From positions 143,482 to 207,481 of the forward strand of contig CAWGQN010000001.1 of assembly GCA_963824885.1 (NCBI GenBank): a DNA stretch of 64,000 nt. The letters are read 5' to 3'. The notes under the pieces are model-generated. The model had not been told where the DNA came from. It worked only from the letters and a program-made list of their open reading frames with translations, and did not search any database. Positions 1-8,597 of this stretch are shown here, piece by piece; positions within the stretch are counted from its first letter, which is position 1, and each line of letters begins with the position of its first letter. This stretch comes from an uncultured Actinomycetota bacterium (GTDB taxonomy: Bacteria; Actinomycetota; Actinomycetes; Actinomycetales; Microbacteriaceae). A program made the position numbers and the translations under genes.

Positions 1-340
1 CGTGAGTGCATCCGGCGAGAACGCCCAACCAAAAAAGGCTGCCGATGGCAGCAAGGAACAGGGCGACCTCCGGGAAGACGATTTCTTTCGTGTCCACCCA
101 CCATCCGAAAGCGTCTCCGAGCCAATGCAGGTAGTAGGCCCACGGCCCACCAATCGGTATGGCCGCTATGACACCCGCCACAAAATAAAGGAGGGCGATG
201 CGGCGGCCGATCTTTTTCCGTGATGAGGGGACGCATAACTGTGGCTTCACGGGAGTGTCCACCGTCGTAGGCTCCTGATGCTTACCGCTCGCTACCCCGA
301 CCACTTGCCCCGGCAACGAGACATCCCCCGAGTCCGTCAT
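1..340 (-). CDS. hypothetical membrane protein (partial; 3' end runs off the window)
   Basis: Minus-strand frame is open from the ATG (revcomp of cat 338-340) to the window edge. It is absent from the ORF track because it has no stop here. The translation MTDSGDVSLPGQ...RKKIGRRIALLYFVAGVIAAIPIGGPWAYYLHWLGDAFGWW...LFLAAIGSLFWLGVLAG contains hydrophobic helices. Its ATG overlaps the upstream ORF stop as ATGA. Confidence 0.45.
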   Translation of the reverse strand, partial: MTDSGDVSLPGQVVGVASGKHQEPTTVDTPVKPQLCVPSSRKKIGRRIALLYFVAGVIAAIPIGGPWAYYLHWLGDAFGWWVDTKEIVFPEVALFLAAIGSLFWLGVLAGCTH

Positions 341-564
341 ATTCCAGAGCTTAGCGACATGCTCGAATGGCCGTCCAGGCCGGGATGCTGGTGGGGGCGT
401 CGAGTGATGCGCAGGCGGAGATAAGCGGTTGAAGAAGCAGATTGAGGAAACCTCGCGGGCATTTCGGCGCGAACTTTTTCGTTGAGCCACACCATCTCGT
501 CGGGGTGCCGTCCGCTGAGCAGCGGGAAAGAGATTTCGTAAATCGTCGTTGTCGGGGTGTACAC
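337..564 (-). CDS. hypothetical small protein (about 75 aa, GTG start assumed)
   Basis: This is the ORF 337..642 trimmed to the first GTG after the ABC ATPase stop. Its stop overlaps the next start as ATGA, which suggests translational coupling. No recognisable motif, and the composition is not very protein-like. Confidence 0.25.
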   Translation of the reverse strand: MYTPTTTIYEISFPLLSGRHPDEMVWLNEKVRAEMPARFPQSASSTAYLRLRITRRPHQHPGLDGHSSMSLSSGI

Positions 565-571
565 AGCATGG

Positions 572-1237
572 CTATTCGCGCTGACGAGGTGCGCCACCAA
601 GCGTGATTTCTCGATCACTTCGTCCGGATACGGAGGTGTCATGCGTCACGACAATGACGGATTTACCCGCGTCCGCGAGGGTTTTGGTGAGGCTCAGGAC
701 GTGGTCTCGGTTGGCACTGTCGAGCGAGCCCGTTGGTTCGTCGGCAAGGATTAGGTGGCACGGCTTGAGGATGAGGCGGGCAATCGCGAGACGCTGTTGT
801 TCTCCGCCTGAGAGCTCATACACTTTGCGATTCGCGTCAAGGTCGAGGCCGACGCGTTCCATCGCGCGTGTCCGAGTTTCTCTTTTTTCTTTGCGCGTTC
901 CCGGGGTGTAGGTTTGTGCAATCGTGAGGTTTTCGGTCACGGTTGCGTTGTCGATGAGGGCGTAGTTTTGAAAGAGGTATCCGAGGCGCAACCGCAGGAG
1001 TATGCGTGCTCGGCGGCTGCCCGGTTTGGGGGCGCGGCGGCCAAATAGTGTGATCTGCCCGCTGTCGGGCCGATCCAGCAGGCCAAGCATGTTCAGAACC
1101 GTCGTTTTGCCGCTTCCGCTGGGACCGGTAATGGCGACGATCTCGCCCGCGTGCACCGTGAGACTCAGGTTTGAGACGATTTCGTGGCCGCGGAAGCTTT
1201 TGTGGACGTTTATGAGTTCGCAAACGGTGTCAGACAT
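572..1237 (-). CDS. ABC transporter ATP-binding protein of the lactococcin-972-type cluster
   Basis: Walker A GPSGSGKTT, signature LSGGEQQRLAIAR and Walker B LILADEPTGSLD. The MSDTVCELINV start overlaps the permease stop as TAATG. Confidence 0.9.
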   Translation of the reverse strand: MSDTVCELINVHKSFRGHEIVSNLSLTVHAGEIVAITGPSGSGKTTVLNMLGLLDRPDSGQITLFGRRAPKPGSRRARILLRLRLGYLFQNYALIDNATVTENLTIAQTYTPGTRKEKRETRTRAMERVGLDLDANRKVYELSGGEQQRLAIARLILKPCHLILADEPTGSLDSANRDHVLSLTKTLADAGKSVIVVTHDTSVSGRSDREITLGGAPRQRE

Positions 1238-3465
1238 TAGAGGTCCCCTTTCAGAATGGTGAGAGTGCGCCGTCGTTCGGTGACCCACAGCACTCCAATG
1301 GCGACGACGCCCTGAACGACACCGATGGCGACAGCCGCGGTGAGCGTGGATTGCGGCCCCGTGTCAGTGTAGGAGAACGGCCGGAAACCGATCGAGACCA
1401 GCCCGACACCGAGCACGGCCTGGACCGTCCACACAAGTGCTCCCAGCCTGATGAACTCCCGGTAGCGCCGCCACGGTGACAAGCCAAACAAGCCGCGAAC
1501 GACAATCGTGCGCGAAAACCGCTCAAACGCGATCGTCAACGCTTGCGCGGTGACAATGACGAGCAATACGGCCAGAGCGCCGAGCACGATCATGGTGTTG
1601 CGCAGGCTTTCTTGGAGGTAGCCAATCTCGGAGAGCTGATATTCGTTAATGGTCGCCAAATGGCGCAGGTTGTCGTCAAGATTGAGTCTTGTGAGCAGCG
1701 GATGGAGGGCGGTGATCGTGGCCTGGGAACTCCCTTCGATCAGCGGAACCTTCAGTCCACCGTCGGGGCCACCCGTGACGGCACTGAGTCGGTCATTACC
1801 CAGACTGTTGGCCTGCGTCATGACTTGAACAATGGGATCCTCAACCGAACCACCGGACGAAGCGGCGACCTCGGGATTAAACGCAAAAATTCGCTGGTCC
1901 TGGTCCGTCCAAATGATCCGCACGGGGTGCTCGTGCCGGGTCGCGCTCACGTCGCGATGGAAACGACTCTTCTCGGCGCGGAACCCGCCCTCGCGTCGGG
2001 TTCGGTAATATTCGGTGATCTCGAGTTCTTGGGAGCGGAATTGCTCGGGCACGAGCACGATCCACGAGGATTCACTCTCATCAATCGTGATCGGCTGACC
2101 GTCCGTGCCACGGATCGGGTAGGCATTGAGGTAGGCAAGATTGACCGTCATTGATCGGTAGACGCCGGCCGGCAGATCGTCCTCAAGCATTTTCTCGGAG
2201 TATTGAACGGCGTCCACATACAAGGCCCCCCGGGCGGTGAGTGCGTCGTAGAGTACTGTCGCCTGAGTGACTTCTCGACCCCCCTTGCCGGTCTGCAGGT
2301 CGACCGAGTCGTTCCCGATGTTAACCGGAGTGAAAACACCGTACCCGCTTGTTGAGGTCCACTGTTGCAGTGCTTCGCGTTCCTTGTTGATGACACCCAC
2401 GTTGGACCAGGCGCCCGCAGCGACGACCACGAGAGCCGCCGACGTCACAACCGACAGGGCGATACCGGTTTTAAACAGCGCCCCGGTGTCACGCCGGTTT
2501 TTAAGCGCGTCCGAGACACGCATTCGTGCCACGTAGGGGATCGTCAACAAGCTCGCCGCAGCGAGCAGGCCCACGGCAACCATCTGGCCGAATGTTACCC
2601 GTGCGACGAATCCGGCGTGCGCACCGGGCACAAGGGCCGCAAGAAAAACAAGAGCGACACCCGTAGCAGCGCCGACGATCATGAGCGGGCGACCCGTGAC
2701 TGTCCACCACACTCTCGTCGCACCGTAGCCCAGCAAGCGCATCGCGCCAGCTCTCTTTGCCTCGTATAGCTGTCGATAGATAGCAAGCACCGCGGTGAAC
2801 AGAAGCCCCGCAAAAACCGCGAGGTGCAAGTAAATCGGTGTGGTATTTGTCGAAATATACAACTGTCGATTCGGTGCGTCTAAATCGGAGGCCACGATCA
2901 ACCGCCCCGCAAGGGTCGTGAACGCAGCAGCCGCAGCGTCCTTAAACGCCGCGCACCCGACCGACCCACACTCCGCATGGTATGTTCCCGACGCAGGCAT
3001 TGCATCGAACGCCGCCCGCAATGGGCGGAACGAAAAACGCTCCTCCCCTCCCAAGACACGCACAACACCAACCGCGTGTGGGTCGTTGGTAATGGACGTG
3101 ACCAAAGCATCGCCGTCTTGTGACTCCTCAGCGGTAAGGAATCTTCCAGACGAGAGGGCGGCGCCGTCGAAAACGCGAGTATCCGGCCCGGTCAACAGCA
3201 CATAGTGGGTCACGAACGCGGAGTTGTTCTGATCGACCCCAACCGCCGTCCGGAAAACATTGGTACCGGTAGCTTCGGCTGCGCTTCGGAGCGCAGACAG
3301 CACCGCATCGGGATCTGTTGCGTCGCTCGGAACGGAAAACGCCTGACCTGCATGGGCTACCGCGCCCGCCATCGCCGTGCGCTCATCGTTCATTGCGTCA
3401 ACAAAGTTCACACCAAACATTGCAGCGCATACCGCGATCACGAGTCCAAACAGGACCTGTTTCAC
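1237..3465 (-). CDS. bacteriocin-associated integral membrane protein (FtsX/DUF1430-like permease with large extracytoplasmic domains)
   Basis: About 740 aa with an N-terminal TM (VLFGLVIAVCAAMF), a central 4-TM block and a C-terminal 3-4 TM block, separated by large soluble domains. It sits between the Lcn972-like precursor and the ABC ATPase, as in lactococcin 972 loci. The GTG start at 3465 is chosen by eye and the true start is uncertain (the ORF extends to 3582). Confidence 0.8.
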   Translation of the reverse strand: MKQVLFGLVIAVCAAMFGVNFVDAMNDERTAMAGAVAHAGQAFSVPSDATDPDAVLSALRSAAEATGTNVFRTAVGVDQNNSAFVTHYVLLTGPDTRVFDGAALSSGRFLTAEESQDGDALVTSITNDPHAVGVVRVLGGEERFSFRPLRAAFDAMPASGTYHAECGSVGCAAFKDAAAAAFTTLAGRLIVASDLDAPNRQLYISTNTTPIYLHLAVFAGLLFTAVLAIYRQLYEAKRAGAMRLLGYGATRVWWTVTGRPLMIVGAATGVALVFLAALVPGAHAGFVARVTFGQMVAVGLLAAASLLTIPYVARMRVSDALKNRRDTGALFKTGIALSVVTSAALVVVAAGAWSNVGVINKEREALQQWTSTSGYGVFTPVNIGNDSVDLQTGKGGREVTQATVLYDALTARGALYVDAVQYSEKMLEDDLPAGVYRSMTVNLAYLNAYPIRGTDGQPITIDESESSWIVLVPEQFRSQELEITEYYRTRREGGFRAEKSRFHRDVSATRHEHPVRIIWTDQDQRIFAFNPEVAASSGGSVEDPIVQVMTQANSLGNDRLSAVTGGPDGGLKVPLIEGSSQATITALHPLLTRLNLDDNLRHLATINEYQLSEIGYLQESLRNTMIVLGALAVLLVIVTAQALTIAFERFSRTIVVRGLFGLSPWRRYREFIRLGALVWTVQAVLGVGLVSIGFRPFSYTDTGPQSTLTAAVAIGVVQGVVAIGVLWVTERRRTLTILKGDL

Positions 3466-3603
3466 CAGCTCACCACACCCTCGACACTCCGACGTCCCCG
3501 CACGCCGCCGACACGCAAGCGGGTCGGCGGACCCACAAAAAGAACCCGCCGACCCCGACAACCGAGGTGATAACTTCCACACCCCCGGATCGGTTGTTAG
3601 TCC

Positions 3604-3912
3604 TTATTTTGTATTCCACCATTGGGCTGCCTGCTCGCTCGCACCACACTGGAGGTCAACCTTCGCCCAATGAGTGGCCTCGGCAGGGTGCGATCTGGAG
3701 TGCGGGCCACACGTAGCCGCAGCGGAATGGTCCTTGCTTGGGTGATTGTAGTGAGACCAGGTTTTCTTGAACCACGGCGGTTCAAACGCGGTCCCATAAT
3801 TCCACTGGCCGCCACCCACGCTGACGATCGTACTTGCGAGTGCGGGAGCTGCCGCACTGATCGTCAACGCACCGACCAGGACTCCCCCCGCAAGCAGGCG
3901 CTTAACATTCAT
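3604..3912 (-). CDS. lactococcin 972 family bacteriocin precursor
   Basis: Signal peptide MNVKRLLAGGVLVGALTISAAAPALA. The mature part VGGGQWNYG...SHYNHPSKDHSAA...THWAKV matches my recollection of Lcn972 (EGTWQHGYG...SNYHHGSKTHSAT...GVWAKA). A GGAG RBS lies upstream of the ATG at 3912. Confidence 0.85.
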   Translation of the reverse strand: MNVKRLLAGGVLVGALTISAAAPALASTIVSVGGGQWNYGTAFEPPWFKKTWSHYNHPSKDHSAAATCGPHSRSHPAEATHWAKVDLQCGASEQAAQWWNTK

Positions 3913-4151
3913 GAGTGTCTCCATTCTTCTTACCGGCCAGAGTTGGCCCTTACGAGGCACAACAATGGCACGGCCCTGCATAGGCCCACAAGACTTCAAC
4001 AGAAGAATTCACCCCTACGCGAGTTACAGTTTGGTTCTACTGAGGTTTCGGTGGGTCGAGCGCGACACCGGTGGCCGTCGCAACAGCCGAGGAAGGTGCG
4101 TCCCATGGAGCCCACGAAACGATTGAGGCGGGGGCGCCACGACCCCGCTGC

Positions 4152-5027
4152 TCACCCAATAAGCTGCCCCACGAAGACGTGCGGAGTGAAGCCCGTGAGG
4201 TCACCGATCCCCTCGCCTTGGCCGACGAGTTTGATGGGAATTCCCGTCTTCTCTTGAACCGCGAGCACAAAGCCGCCCTTCGCCGAACCGTCGAGTTTTG
4301 TCAGCACGAATCCGGTGACCCCAGCGTGTTCGATAAAGGCGTGCGCTTGAGCGAGGCCGTTTTGACCGGTCGTCGCGTCGAGCACGAGCAGAACCTCGGC
4401 AATGGGCGCTTGCTTTTCGATCACCCGGCGAATCTTGGCAAGCTCGTCCATGAGACCGCTCTTGGTCTGAAGTCGCCCAGCTGTATCAATAATCGCAATA
4501 TCGATGTGCTGCGCCGTCGCGCGCTCAATCGTTTGAAACGCAACCGACGCGGGATCTTGGCCCTCGTGCTCGGGTCGCACAATGTGAGCGCCCGCCCGTT
4601 CCGCCCACGTCGCGAGCTGCTCAACCGCGGCGGCTCGAAACGTGTCAGCAGCGCCGACGACGACCGAGCGGCCGTGAGCGCGCAGAAAATGCGCAAACTT
4701 TCCAATCGTGGTTGTTTTTCCCACCCCGTTGACACCGACAATCAGAACGACCGCGGGTCGCTCGGTGAGTCGAAGCGTTGGGTCGAGTCGTGCAAAGCGT
4801 TCTTCGAGGGTCTCGCGAAGCATTCGATCGAGGTCACGAGGATCAGTCGTGCGAAACCGCGCAACCTTGGCTCGAAGATCCGCGATGATCGCGTCACTCG
4901 TGTCGGGTCCAAAGTCAGCCCCAATGAGAGCGTCTTCCAGGTTGTCCCACGTTTCGGCATCGATCATTTGCTGCTGGAAAACCCCTCGCAGCGCGCTCGC
5001 AAGTGACCACGATGTTCGTTCCGCCAT
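4152..5027 (-). CDS. ftsY: signal recognition particle receptor FtsY
   Basis: SRP GTPase NG domain motifs GVNGVGKTTTIGK, DTAGRLQ and TKLDGSAKGG. Confidence 0.95.
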   Translation of the reverse strand: MAERTSWSLASALRGVFQQQMIDAETWDNLEDALIGADFGPDTSDAIIADLRAKVARFRTTDPRDLDRMLRETLEERFARLDPTLRLTERPAVVLIVGVNGVGKTTTIGKFAHFLRAHGRSVVVGAADTFRAAAVEQLATWAERAGAHIVRPEHEGQDPASVAFQTIERATAQHIDIAIIDTAGRLQTKSGLMDELAKIRRVIEKQAPIAEVLLVLDATTGQNGLAQAHAFIEHAGVTGFVLTKLDGSAKGGFVLAVQEKTGIPIKLVGQGEGIGDLTGFTPHVFVGQLIG

Positions 5028-5051: not shown

Positions 5052-8000
5052 TTACCCCGCTGCCACGGCCCGAGCGGGGACGTCAACGCGCTGGCCCACG
5101 ACCGCCGACACGCCGTCGGCGCGCATTGACACCCCGTACAGTGCATCGGCAATTTCCATCGTTCGTTTTTGGTGCGTAATGACAATGAGTTGCGACGATT
5201 CCCGTAAATTCTCGAAAATAGCGAGCAAACGCCCGAGATTAGCGTCGTCGAGCGTGGCTTCGGCCTCGTCCATCACGTAAAAGGGGCTCGGTCTCGCCTT
5301 GAAAATGGAGATGAGAAGCGCGACCGCCGCGAGAGACCGTTCGCCGCCCGAGAGCAAAGACAAGCGCTCGATCCGCTTCCCCGCGGGTTTCGCGACGACC
5401 TCAATGCCCGTGGCACCGAGGTCGCTCGGGTCTGTCAAGTGGATGCTGCCGGTTCCGCCGGGAAACAAAATGGGAAAAACGCGCGCAAATTCCGCTTTCG
5501 TATCGTCAAACGCGCTCACAAAGATCGCCTGCATCTTGTGGTCAATGTCATCTATGAGAGTCAACAAGTCGCGACGCGTAGTACTGAGGTCGGCCAATTG
5601 CTCGGTCAAAAACGCGTGGCGCTGCTCGAGCGCGTCGAACTCTTCGAGCGCGAGCGGGTTGACCTGACCGAGATGCGCGAGCGTCGCTTCCGCGCGCTCG
5701 AGCCGTTCTTGCTGCCGAGCGCGCTCAAAGGGAATCCCCGGCGCGTTCTTGTCGCTATCGGACTCGTCGGCGTGATCGGGGGCGACAAGGGTGTGCGGCC
5801 CATACTCGTCGATGAGCACTTTTTCGTCGAGACCAAGATCGCTCTTAACTCGCTCGAGGAGCCCCTTGAGCGCGAGCTTCTTTTCGTAACACCGTAATTC
5901 GCGCTCGTGCAGGCTCGCGGTTATCTCACGGTGGCGCTCACGTAATTCGCCCTCGTCGTGTCGAACCGCCGAGAGTTCTCTTTCGTGGTTTGACCGCTCG
6001 GCCTCGACACGAGAAACCTCGAGGCGCGCGTGCGTGACCGACCGGTCGACCGACGCAAGCACGGCGGGAAGGCTCTGTGCGACGGCCGTCGCGGCGGCTA
6101 TTTGCCGTCGACGAATTGCGTGAACGCGCGCGGCGCGTGTGGCCGCGGCTCGCTCGCGGTCACACTGTTTCTCCAGTGACACTACGCGGGCACGCTCGGT
6201 GCGATGCCGTTCTTTTGCCGCCTCAAGCCGGAGGCGAACCTCGACCTCGCGTTCTCGAGCGGCCTCGAATTCGGCGAGCGGCACGTCGCGAGGGTCCGCG
6301 GCGAGAGTCGGTCGAGGAATCGACTGCGCCGCGTCCCGCTCGTGTTGGGCACCGTTCACCGCGGCTTCGGCCTCGACGACCCTCGCGCGCGTTGCCGACA
6401 GGGTCGCGTCGAGACGCTCGAAGTCGGCCACCGCCTCATCACACCGATTCGCAAGGCGACGCGTCGCCTCAACGTGCGCGGCGCGGCGCGCATCACCCTC
6501 GCGCACTTCGGTGACGGCCGCCCGCAATTGCTCCCTCGCGACCTCGAGGAGGCCGCGCTTTTCGGCGAGCGCAATAGTTTCTTGCTCGATGCGAGCGCAC
6601 GAGTCGTTGTGACGCGTGAGCGCCTCGTCACGCTCCCCCGCGAGTTCCAATCGGTTTGGCTTCGCGCGCGAGCCGCTTCGCACAACAACCCGGCTGATCA
6701 CATCGCCGCTTTTGGTGATGAGTGTCGCGGTGGCCCGGTCGGATTCGCTCATTGCGGCCCACGCGGTGCGCGCGGTCGCGATGTCGTCGGCGACGTGCGT
6801 GGACGCCAAAAGTGAGAGGACGCCGTCGGGTGCGGTCACGAGCGACGTGGCCCGAACGAGGCCGGGAAAATGAGGCTCGTCGCGAGATTTCACCGCAACG
6901 GCGCTCGCGACCACAATGTCGACCGCACCTAATTTGTGCCGCGCGGCATGATCGAGCGCCGCCGAAGCGTTCTCGTGCGACATGGCGAGGATTGCGTCGG
7001 CGAGGGGCCCGAGAGCCACGGCAATCGCCGTTTCATATCCCGTTTTCACGCGGGTCGTGTCGGCAACCACGCCCGTGACGCCCGCGAGATGCGCGTCCAG
7101 CATCGTGGACGATCCGCCCGATTCGTCAATCAATCGAGCCAAGGCATTCACCTTCGCGCCGAGCGCATCGCGTTCGCGTTCGCTCGCGTGCACACGATCA
7201 CGCGCTCGCTCGACCTCCGCCTCGGCGTGTCGGGCGTGCGTGTCAGCGAGCTGGTAGGCGTCGCTCGCGCGTGCCCCAAGAACATCGACATCATCGGGAG
7301 CAGAGTACGACTGGGCAGCGATGTTGGCGGCGTCGCTCCGCTCACGCGCGGCAGCCACCGCGCTCGCGTCGCGCTCGGCTTCTTCGCGCAGTGCCGTCAG
7401 ACGGTGAGTTGCGCCCTCAAGGCGCGCACTCAGAGCCGCGATGTCGTGATCGTAACGAGACGCGAGAGTGGTCTGGTTGGCAATCTCTGTGTCAATAGCC
7501 TTCAGACGATTGCGCGCCTCATCGCGCGCGTTCTGTGCGCCGCGCCACTCTCTCTCACCCTCGTCGCACAACTCGCGCGTTCTGGCGACCTCGCGATTGG
7601 CCCCATCGAGATTCTCGCGCGTCGCCGTCGAACCGCTCGGCTGCGCATCCGCCTGATTGCCGAGAAACGCGACGCTCTGATTGACGAGCGTGAACAGTGA
7701 CCGGAACCGCTCGTGCGCGTTTTCAAGGCGGAGGCTCGTGCGCCGAGCCGCGTCGACCGCATCCGTGCTGTGCGCCTCTTCGAGCCGAGCAATCGTCGTC
7801 CGGGCGCGCTCGAGCTGGTCCTCGAGTTCCCCCGATTCCGTGCGCTCGGCGTTCTCAGCGAGGGTGTGCGCGTCGAGAGCTCGGCGCGCCGTGACAATCT
7901 CGTCGGCGAGCAACCGCGCTCGGGCGTCTCGAACGATCGCCGCAATCGTTTGTGCTTCTTTCGCGGCTTCGGCCTGGCGCCCGAGAGGCGTGAGTTGGCG

Positions 8001-8597
8001 CCGCACCTCGGCCAAAAGATCGCTCAATCGAGCGAGATTCGCGTGCATCGCGTCAAGCTTTCTCACGGTCTTTTCTTTCCGCTTGCGATGCTTCGCAATT
8101 CCCGCGGCCTCTTCGATAAACCCGCGCCGTTCTTCGCTGCTCGCGTGCAAGACCGTGTCAAGCTGCCCTTGACCGACGATCACGTGCATCTCGCGGCCGA
8201 GTCCCGAATCGCTCAACAGCTCGTGAATATCGAGCAACCGACACGCGTGCGCGTTGATCGCGTACTCACTCGTGCCACTTCTAAACAGCGTGCGCCTGAT
8301 CGCCACCTCGCCGTATTCAATGGGCAAGGCACCGTCGGAATTGTCGATTGTCAGCGTCACTTCTGCGCGACCCAGCGGACCTCGTGTTGACGTTCCCGCA
8401 AAAATAACGTCGTCCATTGTGCCCCCGCGCAGCGTTTTCACGCCCTGCTCCCCCATGACCCACGCGAGCGCATCGACAACGTTGCTCTTGCCCGACCCGT
8501 TCGGGCCCACCACGCACGTTACGCCCGGTTCGAACGAAAATGTCGTCGGTTGGGCAAACGACTTGAACCCCTTGAGGGTGAGGCTTTTGAGATACAC
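5052..8597 (-). CDS. smc: chromosome segregation protein SMC
   Basis: 1181 aa with N-terminal Walker A GPNGSGKSN, long Ala/Arg/Glu-rich coiled coils, and a C-terminal LSGGERSLAAVALL signature with Walker B FYVMDEAEA. Confidence 0.97.
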   Translation of the reverse strand: MYLKSLTLKGFKSFAQPTTFSFEPGVTCVVGPNGSGKSNVVDALAWVMGEQGVKTLRGGTMDDVIFAGTSTRGPLGRAEVTLTIDNSDGALPIEYGEVAIRRTLFRSGTSEYAINAHACRLLDIHELLSDSGLGREMHVIVGQGQLDTVLHASSEERRGFIEEAAGIAKHRKRKEKTVRKLDAMHANLARLSDLLAEVRRQLTPLGRQAEAAKEAQTIAAIVRDARARLLADEIVTARRALDAHTLAENAERTESGELEDQLERARTTIARLEEAHSTDAVDAARRTSLRLENAHERFRSLFTLVNQSVAFLGNQADAQPSGSTATRENLDGANREVARTRELCDEGEREWRGAQNARDEARNRLKAIDTEIANQTTLASRYDHDIAALSARLEGATHRLTALREEAERDASAVAAARERSDAANIAAQSYSAPDDVDVLGARASDAYQLADTHARHAEAEVERARDRVHASERERDALGAKVNALARLIDESGGSSTMLDAHLAGVTGVVADTTRVKTGYETAIAVALGPLADAILAMSHENASAALDHAARHKLGAVDIVVASAVAVKSRDEPHFPGLVRATSLVTAPDGVLSLLASTHVADDIATARTAWAAMSESDRATATLITKSGDVISRVVVRSGSRAKPNRLELAGERDEALTRHNDSCARIEQETIALAEKRGLLEVAREQLRAAVTEVREGDARRAAHVEATRRLANRCDEAVADFERLDATLSATRARVVEAEAAVNGAQHERDAAQSIPRPTLAADPRDVPLAEFEAAREREVEVRLRLEAAKERHRTERARVVSLEKQCDRERAAATRAARVHAIRRRQIAAATAVAQSLPAVLASVDRSVTHARLEVSRVEAERSNHERELSAVRHDEGELRERHREITASLHERELRCYEKKLALKGLLERVKSDLGLDEKVLIDEYGPHTLVAPDHADESDSDKNAPGIPFERARQQERLERAEATLAHLGQVNPLALEEFDALEQRHAFLTEQLADLSTTRRDLLTLIDDIDHKMQAIFVSAFDDTKAEFARVFPILFPGGTGSIHLTDPSDLGATGIEVVAKPAGKRIERLSLLSGGERSLAAVALLISIFKARPSPFYVMDEAEATLDDANLGRLLAIFENLRESSQLIVITHQKRTMEIADALYGVSMRADGVSAVVGQRVDVPARAVAAG

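Follow-up and report, generated by a model that had tools for sequence, protein, structure and literature searches.

Introduction

The lactococcin 972 (Lcn972) operon of Lactococcus lactis IPLA972, lcn972-orf2-orf3, is located on plasmid pBL1 and consists of a bacteriocin gene followed by the putative immunity genes orf2 and orf3 (PMC4055356). Both the operon structure and the mode of action of the peptide, which acts on lipid II and inhibits the septum, have been described (PMC4055356, PMC9964109); within the family, this mode of action is on record for Lcn972 only. The peptide is heat-labile (PMC12532748). The streptococcin B locus scbABC of Streptococcus pneumoniae is similar in having an Lcn972-like peptide gene followed by presumed immunity and transport genes, and its peptide depends on Sec and acts in competition within the species (PMC11796350). 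The locus analyzed here is a three-gene cassette of this kind in an uncultured small-genome actinobacterium of the Microbacteriaceae (assembly GCA_963824885.1). It lies within a stretch of 64,000 nucleotides (nt) of contig CAWGQN010000001.1 (positions 143,482 to 207,481, forward strand), which is referred to as the window and to which positions refer unless stated otherwise.

Two further sets of relatives are relevant for comparison. Lcn972-type clusters from other Actinomycetota, namely Brevibacterium aurantiacum and Corynebacterium, Frigoribacterium and Cellulomonas species, have been predicted by genome mining and resemble this locus in their high-GC hosts and their placement in islands or variable regions (PMC5719810, PMC12188740, PMC12823222, PMC12612818). 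A preliminary description of the locus, made from the sequence, had called the actinobacterial members essentially uncharacterized by experiment. The literature search agrees in that the papers found on them report genome mining only, although loci of this type are themselves already on record (PMC5719810, PMC12188740, PMC12823222). The second relative is Formosin D (PDB 9HKJ), which was deposited as 'Lactococcin 972 family bacteriocin' and released in December 2025. No paper on Formosin D was found, and a literature search on 'Formosin' returned plant diterpenoids only.

Organization of the cassette

A six-frame listing of open reading frames (ORFs), together with direct reading of the sequence, places three co-oriented genes on the minus strand in the order precursor, membrane protein and ABC (ATP-binding cassette) ATPase. 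The lactococcin-972-family precursor gene (3604..3912) encodes 102 amino acids (aa), with an ATG at 3912 and a stop at 3606-3604. It is followed by the gene for a bacteriocin-associated integral membrane protein, hereafter the permease (1237..3465; 742 aa; GTG at 3465, stop at 1239-1237), and by the ATPase gene (572..1237; 221 aa; ATG at 1237, stop at 574-572). The permease stop is coupled to the ATPase ATG by a TAATG overlap at 1239-1235. With a leader upstream, a hairpin after the peptide gene and this overlap between the last two genes, the cassette is arranged as one operon. Judged by sequence, each of the proteins is homologous to one of the three families of the Lcn972 operon, and the gene order is the same (PMC4055356). 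The preliminary description, which had proposed a complete three-gene locus with TAATG coupling laid out as in L. lactis, is borne out: its features are all present on the minus strand where it placed them, and the order is the classical one, shared also with pneumococcal scbABC (PMC4055356, PMC11796350). The Lcn972 operon differs in being plasmid-borne, whereas this locus is chromosomal with 60% GC.

Two sets of homologous loci are used throughout. The loci L021-L024 encode a 62%-identical peptide (P0003) in the same three-gene order within an unrelated neighbourhood; relative to L021, the permease is 71% identical over its full length and the ATPase 83% identical. The GTG start of the permease agrees with the L021 homologue, called as 743 aa, in a full-length alignment. 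The second, L009, is a 2.4-kb metagenome contig with a 73%-identical peptide (P0002), and it is assigned to a close relative because the N-terminus of its ffh product is 100% identical over 66 aa. On this contig the peptide gene adjoins ffh and is convergent with the genes for the ATPase and the permease, which are 88% and 90% identical, respectively. As a side observation, this arrangement implies that the island carrying the cassette has been rearranged between close relatives.

The precursor peptide

The precursor begins with MNVKRLLAGGVLVGALTISAAAPALA, after which cleavage is predicted, and its mature part runs from STIVSVGGGQWNYG to LQCGASEQAAQWWNTK. Its N-terminus, consisting of MNVKR, a hydrophobic core and APALA before a serine, reads as a signal peptide of the Sec type that spans 26 aa (residues 1-26; 3912-3835, minus strand) and is conserved in relatives. 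The remaining 76-aa mature peptide (3834-3607, minus strand) has a calculated mass of about 8.42 kDa and a pI of about 7.9. The precursor has no double-glycine leader, and no modification-enzyme or leader-peptidase genes were found among the neighbours. Lcn972 likewise has a Sec-type signal peptide, the conserved blocks and an unmodified peptide of beta-sandwich fold, but its mature form has 66 residues and a pI of about 9.7; the peptide described here is extended by 7 residues at its N-terminus, and its first loop is longer.

A public gene call for this protein starts 23 codons further upstream and yields 125 aa (MQGRAIVV..., window 3913-3981). This start was rejected in favour of the 102-aa start, which is better supported because in L021 the upstream stretch and the ATG are in different reading frames and because the same stretch also precedes an unrelated gene, which indicates conservation at the DNA level. 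The sequence GGAG lies 7 nt 5' of the ATG of the shorter form.

Family models place the precursor with Lcn972, although at different strengths. The Pfam model PF09683 is matched over its full length (1-62) with 43.3 bits against a cut-off of 22 (E=5.4e-11), while the NCBIfam model TIGR01653 is matched with 33.0 bits against a cut-off of 32.1; in a single-genome profile search of the source genome the TIGR01653 match has E=2.4e-8. A phmmer comparison of the peptide alone with Lcn972 (PDB 2LGN) is weak (E=0.19). Independent support was therefore sought. A word-index protein search returned only the peptide itself and one 73% homologue, and the family emerged from an exhaustive phmmer search of 1.84 billion representatives, which yielded 119 relatives. 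The blocks GGGxWxYG, WSxYxH, HS(A/S)T, WA and YW are common to these relatives. The precursor keeps all family-conserved blocks, all seven invariant or near-invariant residues of the mature peptide and both of its cysteines. A profile built from 104 relatives matches Lcn972 at E=5.8e-13 over residues 2-65 of 66 and Formosin D at E=5.5e-7. Plasmid and phage collections contained no match to the peptide and thus give no evidence of a plasmid or phage vehicle.

Structure prediction was carried out with AlphaFold2 using the alignment of relatives. The mean pLDDT of the model is 85.5 overall and, when averaged in blocks of 10 residues, 92-98 over the mature domain. The model contains seven beta-strands, so that the predicted fold is a seven-strand beta-sandwich like that of Lcn972. 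The top two Foldseek matches of the model in the PDB are 9HKJ and 2LGN, both with a probability of 1.00. Formosin D is the best match (E=5e-3; TM-score 0.54 when normalized to the query and 0.64 when normalized to the target; 18% identity); it has no cysteine in the aligned part and carries an insertion after the HS(A/G)T block. The match to Lcn972 has a target-normalized TM-score of 0.75 and a root-mean-square deviation of 3.2 Å. Since the profile, AlphaFold2 and Foldseek all provide support beyond the marginal TIGR01653 score, membership of the peptide in the lactococcin 972 family is secure. The 102-aa Lcn972-type precursor with its hallmark blocks, as it had first been described, is thus upheld by PF09683, TIGR01653, the relatives' profile and the fold alike.

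The permease and the ATPase

TIGR01654 is the sole NCBIfam match of the permease (E=1.7e-52; 178.8 bits against a cut-off of 189.35), and the alignment covers model positions 169-681. The first 168 model positions are unmatched, and the N-terminal extracellular domain of this permease does not align with the model. A weak match to DUF1430 is found in Pfam. The E-value nevertheless points to clear homology with TIGR01654 proteins. A hydropathy scan shows eight hydrophobic segments, arranged as one segment, a loop of about 190 aa and three segments, then one segment, a loop of about 270 aa and three segments. The permease has no sequence match to any PDB structure and no match to the FtsX Pfam model at E<=0.01.

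The ATPase matches the full TIGR03608 model (1-206) with 256.2 bits against a cut-off of 254.85 (E=1.8e-76), and its next-best families are FtsE, DarD, MacB, DevA and LolD. The three families that the preliminary description had named for the locus, TIGR01653, TIGR01654 and TIGR03608, are therefore the best matches of the three proteins when the hidden Markov model check is run. An FtsE/MacB/LolD-like ATPase paired with a permease whose transmembrane helices are separated by large extracellular domains corresponds to the architecture of MacB/BceAB-like (type VII) transporters, which act on substrates at the external face of the membrane. The likeness to BceAB and MacB extends to the role proposed for this locus, namely protection from a peptide that binds cell-wall precursors. 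The likeness is one of architecture only, and any shared mechanism would follow by analogy.

The cysteine pair

The mature peptide contains two cysteines, Cys68 in 'ATCGP' (TGT at 3711-3709, minus strand) and Cys89 in 'LQCGA' (TGT at 3648-3646, minus strand), and Lcn972 has none in residues 2-65 of 66, as seen in the profile alignment to 2LGN. The contrast with Lcn972 drawn in the preliminary description is therefore real, but paired cysteines are common in the wider family. Their distribution was tallied, in the numbering of this precursor, over 109 full-length sequences comprising 107 relatives, the query and Lcn972. Both cysteines occur in 12 of the 109, only one in 6 and neither in 91, and this co-occurrence has a Fisher p-value of 5e-11, not corrected for relatedness. 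In 41 of the 109 sequences there is instead a pair at positions 51 and 95, which never occurs together with the 68/89 pair. In an alignment of 118 family sequences, cysteines also recur near 61, 76-77 and 102, which may be a third pattern. The tally marks the 68/89 pair as a trait of a subfamily that is not unique to this locus.

MdbA/VKOR systems are the usual actinobacterial machinery for oxidizing exported proteins. The source genome encodes a VKOR protein (123.8 bits) and two DsbA-like thioredoxin-fold proteins. Because the two cysteines co-occur across relatives and this machinery is encoded in the genome, a disulfide between Cys68 and Cys89 is likely.

Distribution in related genomes

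TIGR01653 matches were found in 5 of 61 sampled genomes of the same family and order, the source genome included, and in at least 5 of 401 genomes across the phylum. The latter count is a lower bound, as it missed the source genome's own match; tallies over many genomes undercount this short family. A TIGR01654-type permease is present in 3 of the 61 sampled genomes (again including the source), and it coincides with a TIGR01653 match only in the source genome. The classical three-gene layout is uncommon among the relatives of this locus.

Two same-family relatives, L011 (8042-10801) and L013 (7767-10532), carry a four-gene variant, in which an Lcn972-like peptide gene is accompanied by genes for two membrane proteins and an ABC ATPase. 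The membrane proteins, of about 210 aa and 360 aa, are unrecognized, and the ATPases are generic, with 100-111 bits on TIGR03608. The Brevibacterium clusters have the same composition, two smaller membrane proteins and an ATPase (PMC5719810), whereas the locus described here has a single TIGR01654-type permease of about 740 aa.

Proposed function and alternatives

The locus probably encodes a Sec-exported, unmodified class IId lactococcin 972-family bacteriocin with a dedicated two-component ABC system. In the proposed scheme, the precursor would be cleaved after Ala26 to release the 76-aa peptide, and the VKOR/DsbA-type machinery of the producer would oxidize Cys68 and Cys89 outside the cell. 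The peptide would then bind lipid II of related actinobacteria and block septal wall synthesis as Lcn972 does, a step proposed by homology only. The hairpin would keep the peptide mRNA in excess of the transporter mRNA. The permease, with its two extracellular domains, would work with two copies of the FtsE/MacB-like ATPase, and by analogy with the type VII transporters the complex may confer protection on the producer, driving the peptide out or stripping it from lipid II, without being needed for secretion. The cassette as a whole would be a mobile accessory unit that has landed in the variable interval between ftsY and ffh.

Several points weigh against this scheme. The TIGR01653 cut-off is exceeded by less than 1 bit, which is marginal, the permease falls 10 bits below the TIGR01654 cut-off, and identity to Lcn972 is only 26% over the structural alignment. 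The functions of both accessory products are experimentally unverified in any Lcn972-type locus (PMC11796350). Targets vary widely within the family, as illustrated by Lmo2776 of Listeria, which acts on Prevotella copri (PMC6854461), and because of this diversity lipid II binding cannot be assumed. Finally, as set out below, the divergence of the mature peptide has more than one explanation.

In the alternative that fares best, the product would be a secreted protein of the Lcn972 fold with a non-killing role: it might signal, modulate wall synthesis in the producer itself, or act on a host or on organisms that are very distant, and the ABC system would serve export or sensing. In its favour, characterized members differ in function, Lmo2776 being directed at a Gram-negative commensal of the gut (PMC6854461), copies of the family have been acquired laterally by Trichomonas (PMC12612818), and the unverified B and C gene functions leave room for such a role (PMC11796350). 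This alternative is nevertheless unlikely, given that every family member tested so far is antibacterial, that the peptide retains all family-conserved blocks and that it evolves faster than the transporter, as is typical of bacteriocins.

The rates of divergence also bear on a second alternative, in which the peptide gene is drifting to inactivity and the transporter is retained solely for immunity, as a 'cheater' system that counters the bacteriocins of neighbours. The peptide is the most diverged component of the cassette in each comparison. The ratio of nonsynonymous to synonymous substitution rates (dN/dS) of the mature peptide is 0.91 against L009, the closest homologue. Across L009 and L021, the ratio is 0.12-0.14 for the ATPase and 0.11-0.23 for the permease, values that place the transporter genes under purifying selection. 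The pattern fits diversifying selection on the bacteriocin but, with only 76 codons, is indistinguishable from relaxed constraint. Loss of peptide function would accord with the gap between the peptide value and those of 0.11-0.14 for the transporter genes against the same homologue, with the rearrangement of the peptide gene away from the transporter genes in L009 and with the existence of immunity-only loci in pneumococci (PMC11796350). However, from the leader and ribosome-binding site through to the reading frame and signal peptide, the gene is intact, the conserved mature-peptide residues and both cysteines described above are kept, and dN/dS falls to 0.35 against the more distant L021 homologue, all of which speaks against drift to inactivity, the less probable of these two alternatives. 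That the three genes are unrelated neighbours with family matches due to chance or composition, a reading that could draw on the marginal TIGR01653 score (33.0 against 32.1) and the phmmer E-value of 0.19, is refuted by the independent Pfam, profile and fold matches, by E-values of 1.7e-52 and 1.8e-76 for the other two proteins and by the linkage of the same three genes in L021-L024.

Leader and intergenic hairpin

Upstream of the precursor gene lies a conserved region (3913..4040, minus strand) that is a putative promoter and leader. Its elements include a TAGGGT -10-like hexamer (about 4012-4007) and, immediately 5' of the ribosome-binding site, the palindrome GGCCA-ACTC-TGGCC. A comparison with L009 shows stronger conservation in the roughly 120 nt preceding the ATG than in the coding sequence. 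A second, inverted copy (G000:C1:140406-140506, plus strand, corresponding to L015 607-707) directly precedes an endolysin-like gene that neighbours ffh. The two arms, the first at window 3934-4034 on the minus strand, are 101 nt long and 80% complementary. A direct DNA search for the leader gives 85% identity over 81 nt and shows that the source genome has these two copies only. In L009, the peptide gene lies between two inward-facing copies, at 250-450 (plus strand) and 788-896 (minus strand). Rfam has no match for the leader or for the intergenic hairpin, and RNAalifold applied to three leader copies gives too little covariation to claim an RNA structure.

The four known leader copies suggest shared regulation of the peptide and endolysin-like genes and recombination between copies, neither of which is established. 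In this respect the locus differs from scbABC, which is controlled by ComE/ComR quorum sensing; here there is no regulator gene, and the leader is duplicated. A bolder and doubtful extension is that the ftsY-ffh island forms a co-regulated two-weapon module against the cell wall, in which a disulfide-stapled, lipid-II-blocking Lcn972-type peptide and a 746-aa phage-endolysin-like muralytic enzyme, each driven by one leader copy, would be deployed together. As part of this reading, recombination between leaders would reshuffle the island, which the differing arrangement in L009 would suggest.

A GC-rich 14-bp hairpin (3521..3555, minus strand) lies between the precursor and permease genes. Its predicted folding energy is -26.4 kcal/mol (z=-3.8), 0 of 200 shuffled sequences fold as well, and it lacks a U-tract. 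L021 has a hairpin of different sequence at the same place (-34.5 kcal/mol, z=-3.9). The element is probably a partial terminator or an mRNA stabilizer favouring the peptide mRNA.

The ftsY-ffh interval

Upstream, the cassette is flanked by ftsY (4152..5027, minus strand; TIGR00064, 308.7 bits), which is preceded by smc (8597..5052, minus strand). The interval from ftsY to ffh spans 7.36 kb in the source genome, compared with 76-911 bp in its three nearest relatives (FtsY 81-84% identical), and ranges from 48 bp to 12.6 kb in genomes of the same family. Because the interval is far shorter in the nearest relatives, comparison of these genomes supports an insertion of the island into a variable ftsY-ffh interval, which is in keeping with the initial statement that the locus was inserted after ftsY. 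No integrase, transfer RNA or direct-repeat scars were found around the island; flanking direct repeats are no longer than expected by chance, and apart from the 101-nt inverted leader pair no repeat stands out. The GC fraction stays level at about 0.60 through the locus and its flanks, with no compositional shift.

Past the ATPase gene, the order is a 75-aa ORF, a membrane protein of about 154 aa, a 156-aa single-pass protein, a 746-aa protein and ffh, with the 156-aa and 746-aa genes on the strand opposite to the cassette. The 75-aa ORF (337..564, minus strand) is doubtful and its membership in the operon unproven. Its start lies 7 nt beyond the stop of the ATPase gene, and its own stop overlaps (ATGA) the ATG at 340 of the next gene. 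That gene encodes a three-helix membrane protein of about 154 aa (1-340, minus strand) and continues beyond the window, in L008 to 11876. Neither of these two products has a family match or a counterpart in L009.

The 746-aa protein is endolysin-like (L008 9072-11312, equal to G000:C1:140553-142793; plus strand). It combines a PG_binding_1 domain with an Rv2525c-like glycoside-hydrolase-like domain, matches phrog_15213 at E=6e-130 as well as endolysin PHROGs and has no signal peptide. After it lies the gene for the 156-aa single-pass membrane protein (L008 11363-11833, equal to G000:C1:142844-143314; plus strand). The pair resembles a stray lysin/holin-like pair, with no prophage around it.

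Significance

As a new but unremarkable representative of a known family that annotation pipelines already recognize, the locus contributes one more data point and no new concept. Literature searches found no experimental characterization of any actinobacterial Lcn972-type member, the reports being limited to genome mining. Few unmodified bacteriocins are known to bind lipid II, and peptides of the Lcn972 type belong to them; the handful of Lcn972-type peptides studied so far all come from Firmicutes. The paired-cysteine patterns at 68/89 and 51/95 offer a simple means to subdivide the family. If confirmed, a disulfide-bearing actinobacterial member would show how the fold is stabilized in organisms in which exported proteins are routinely oxidized, and it would show whether the family targets actinobacterial lipid II.

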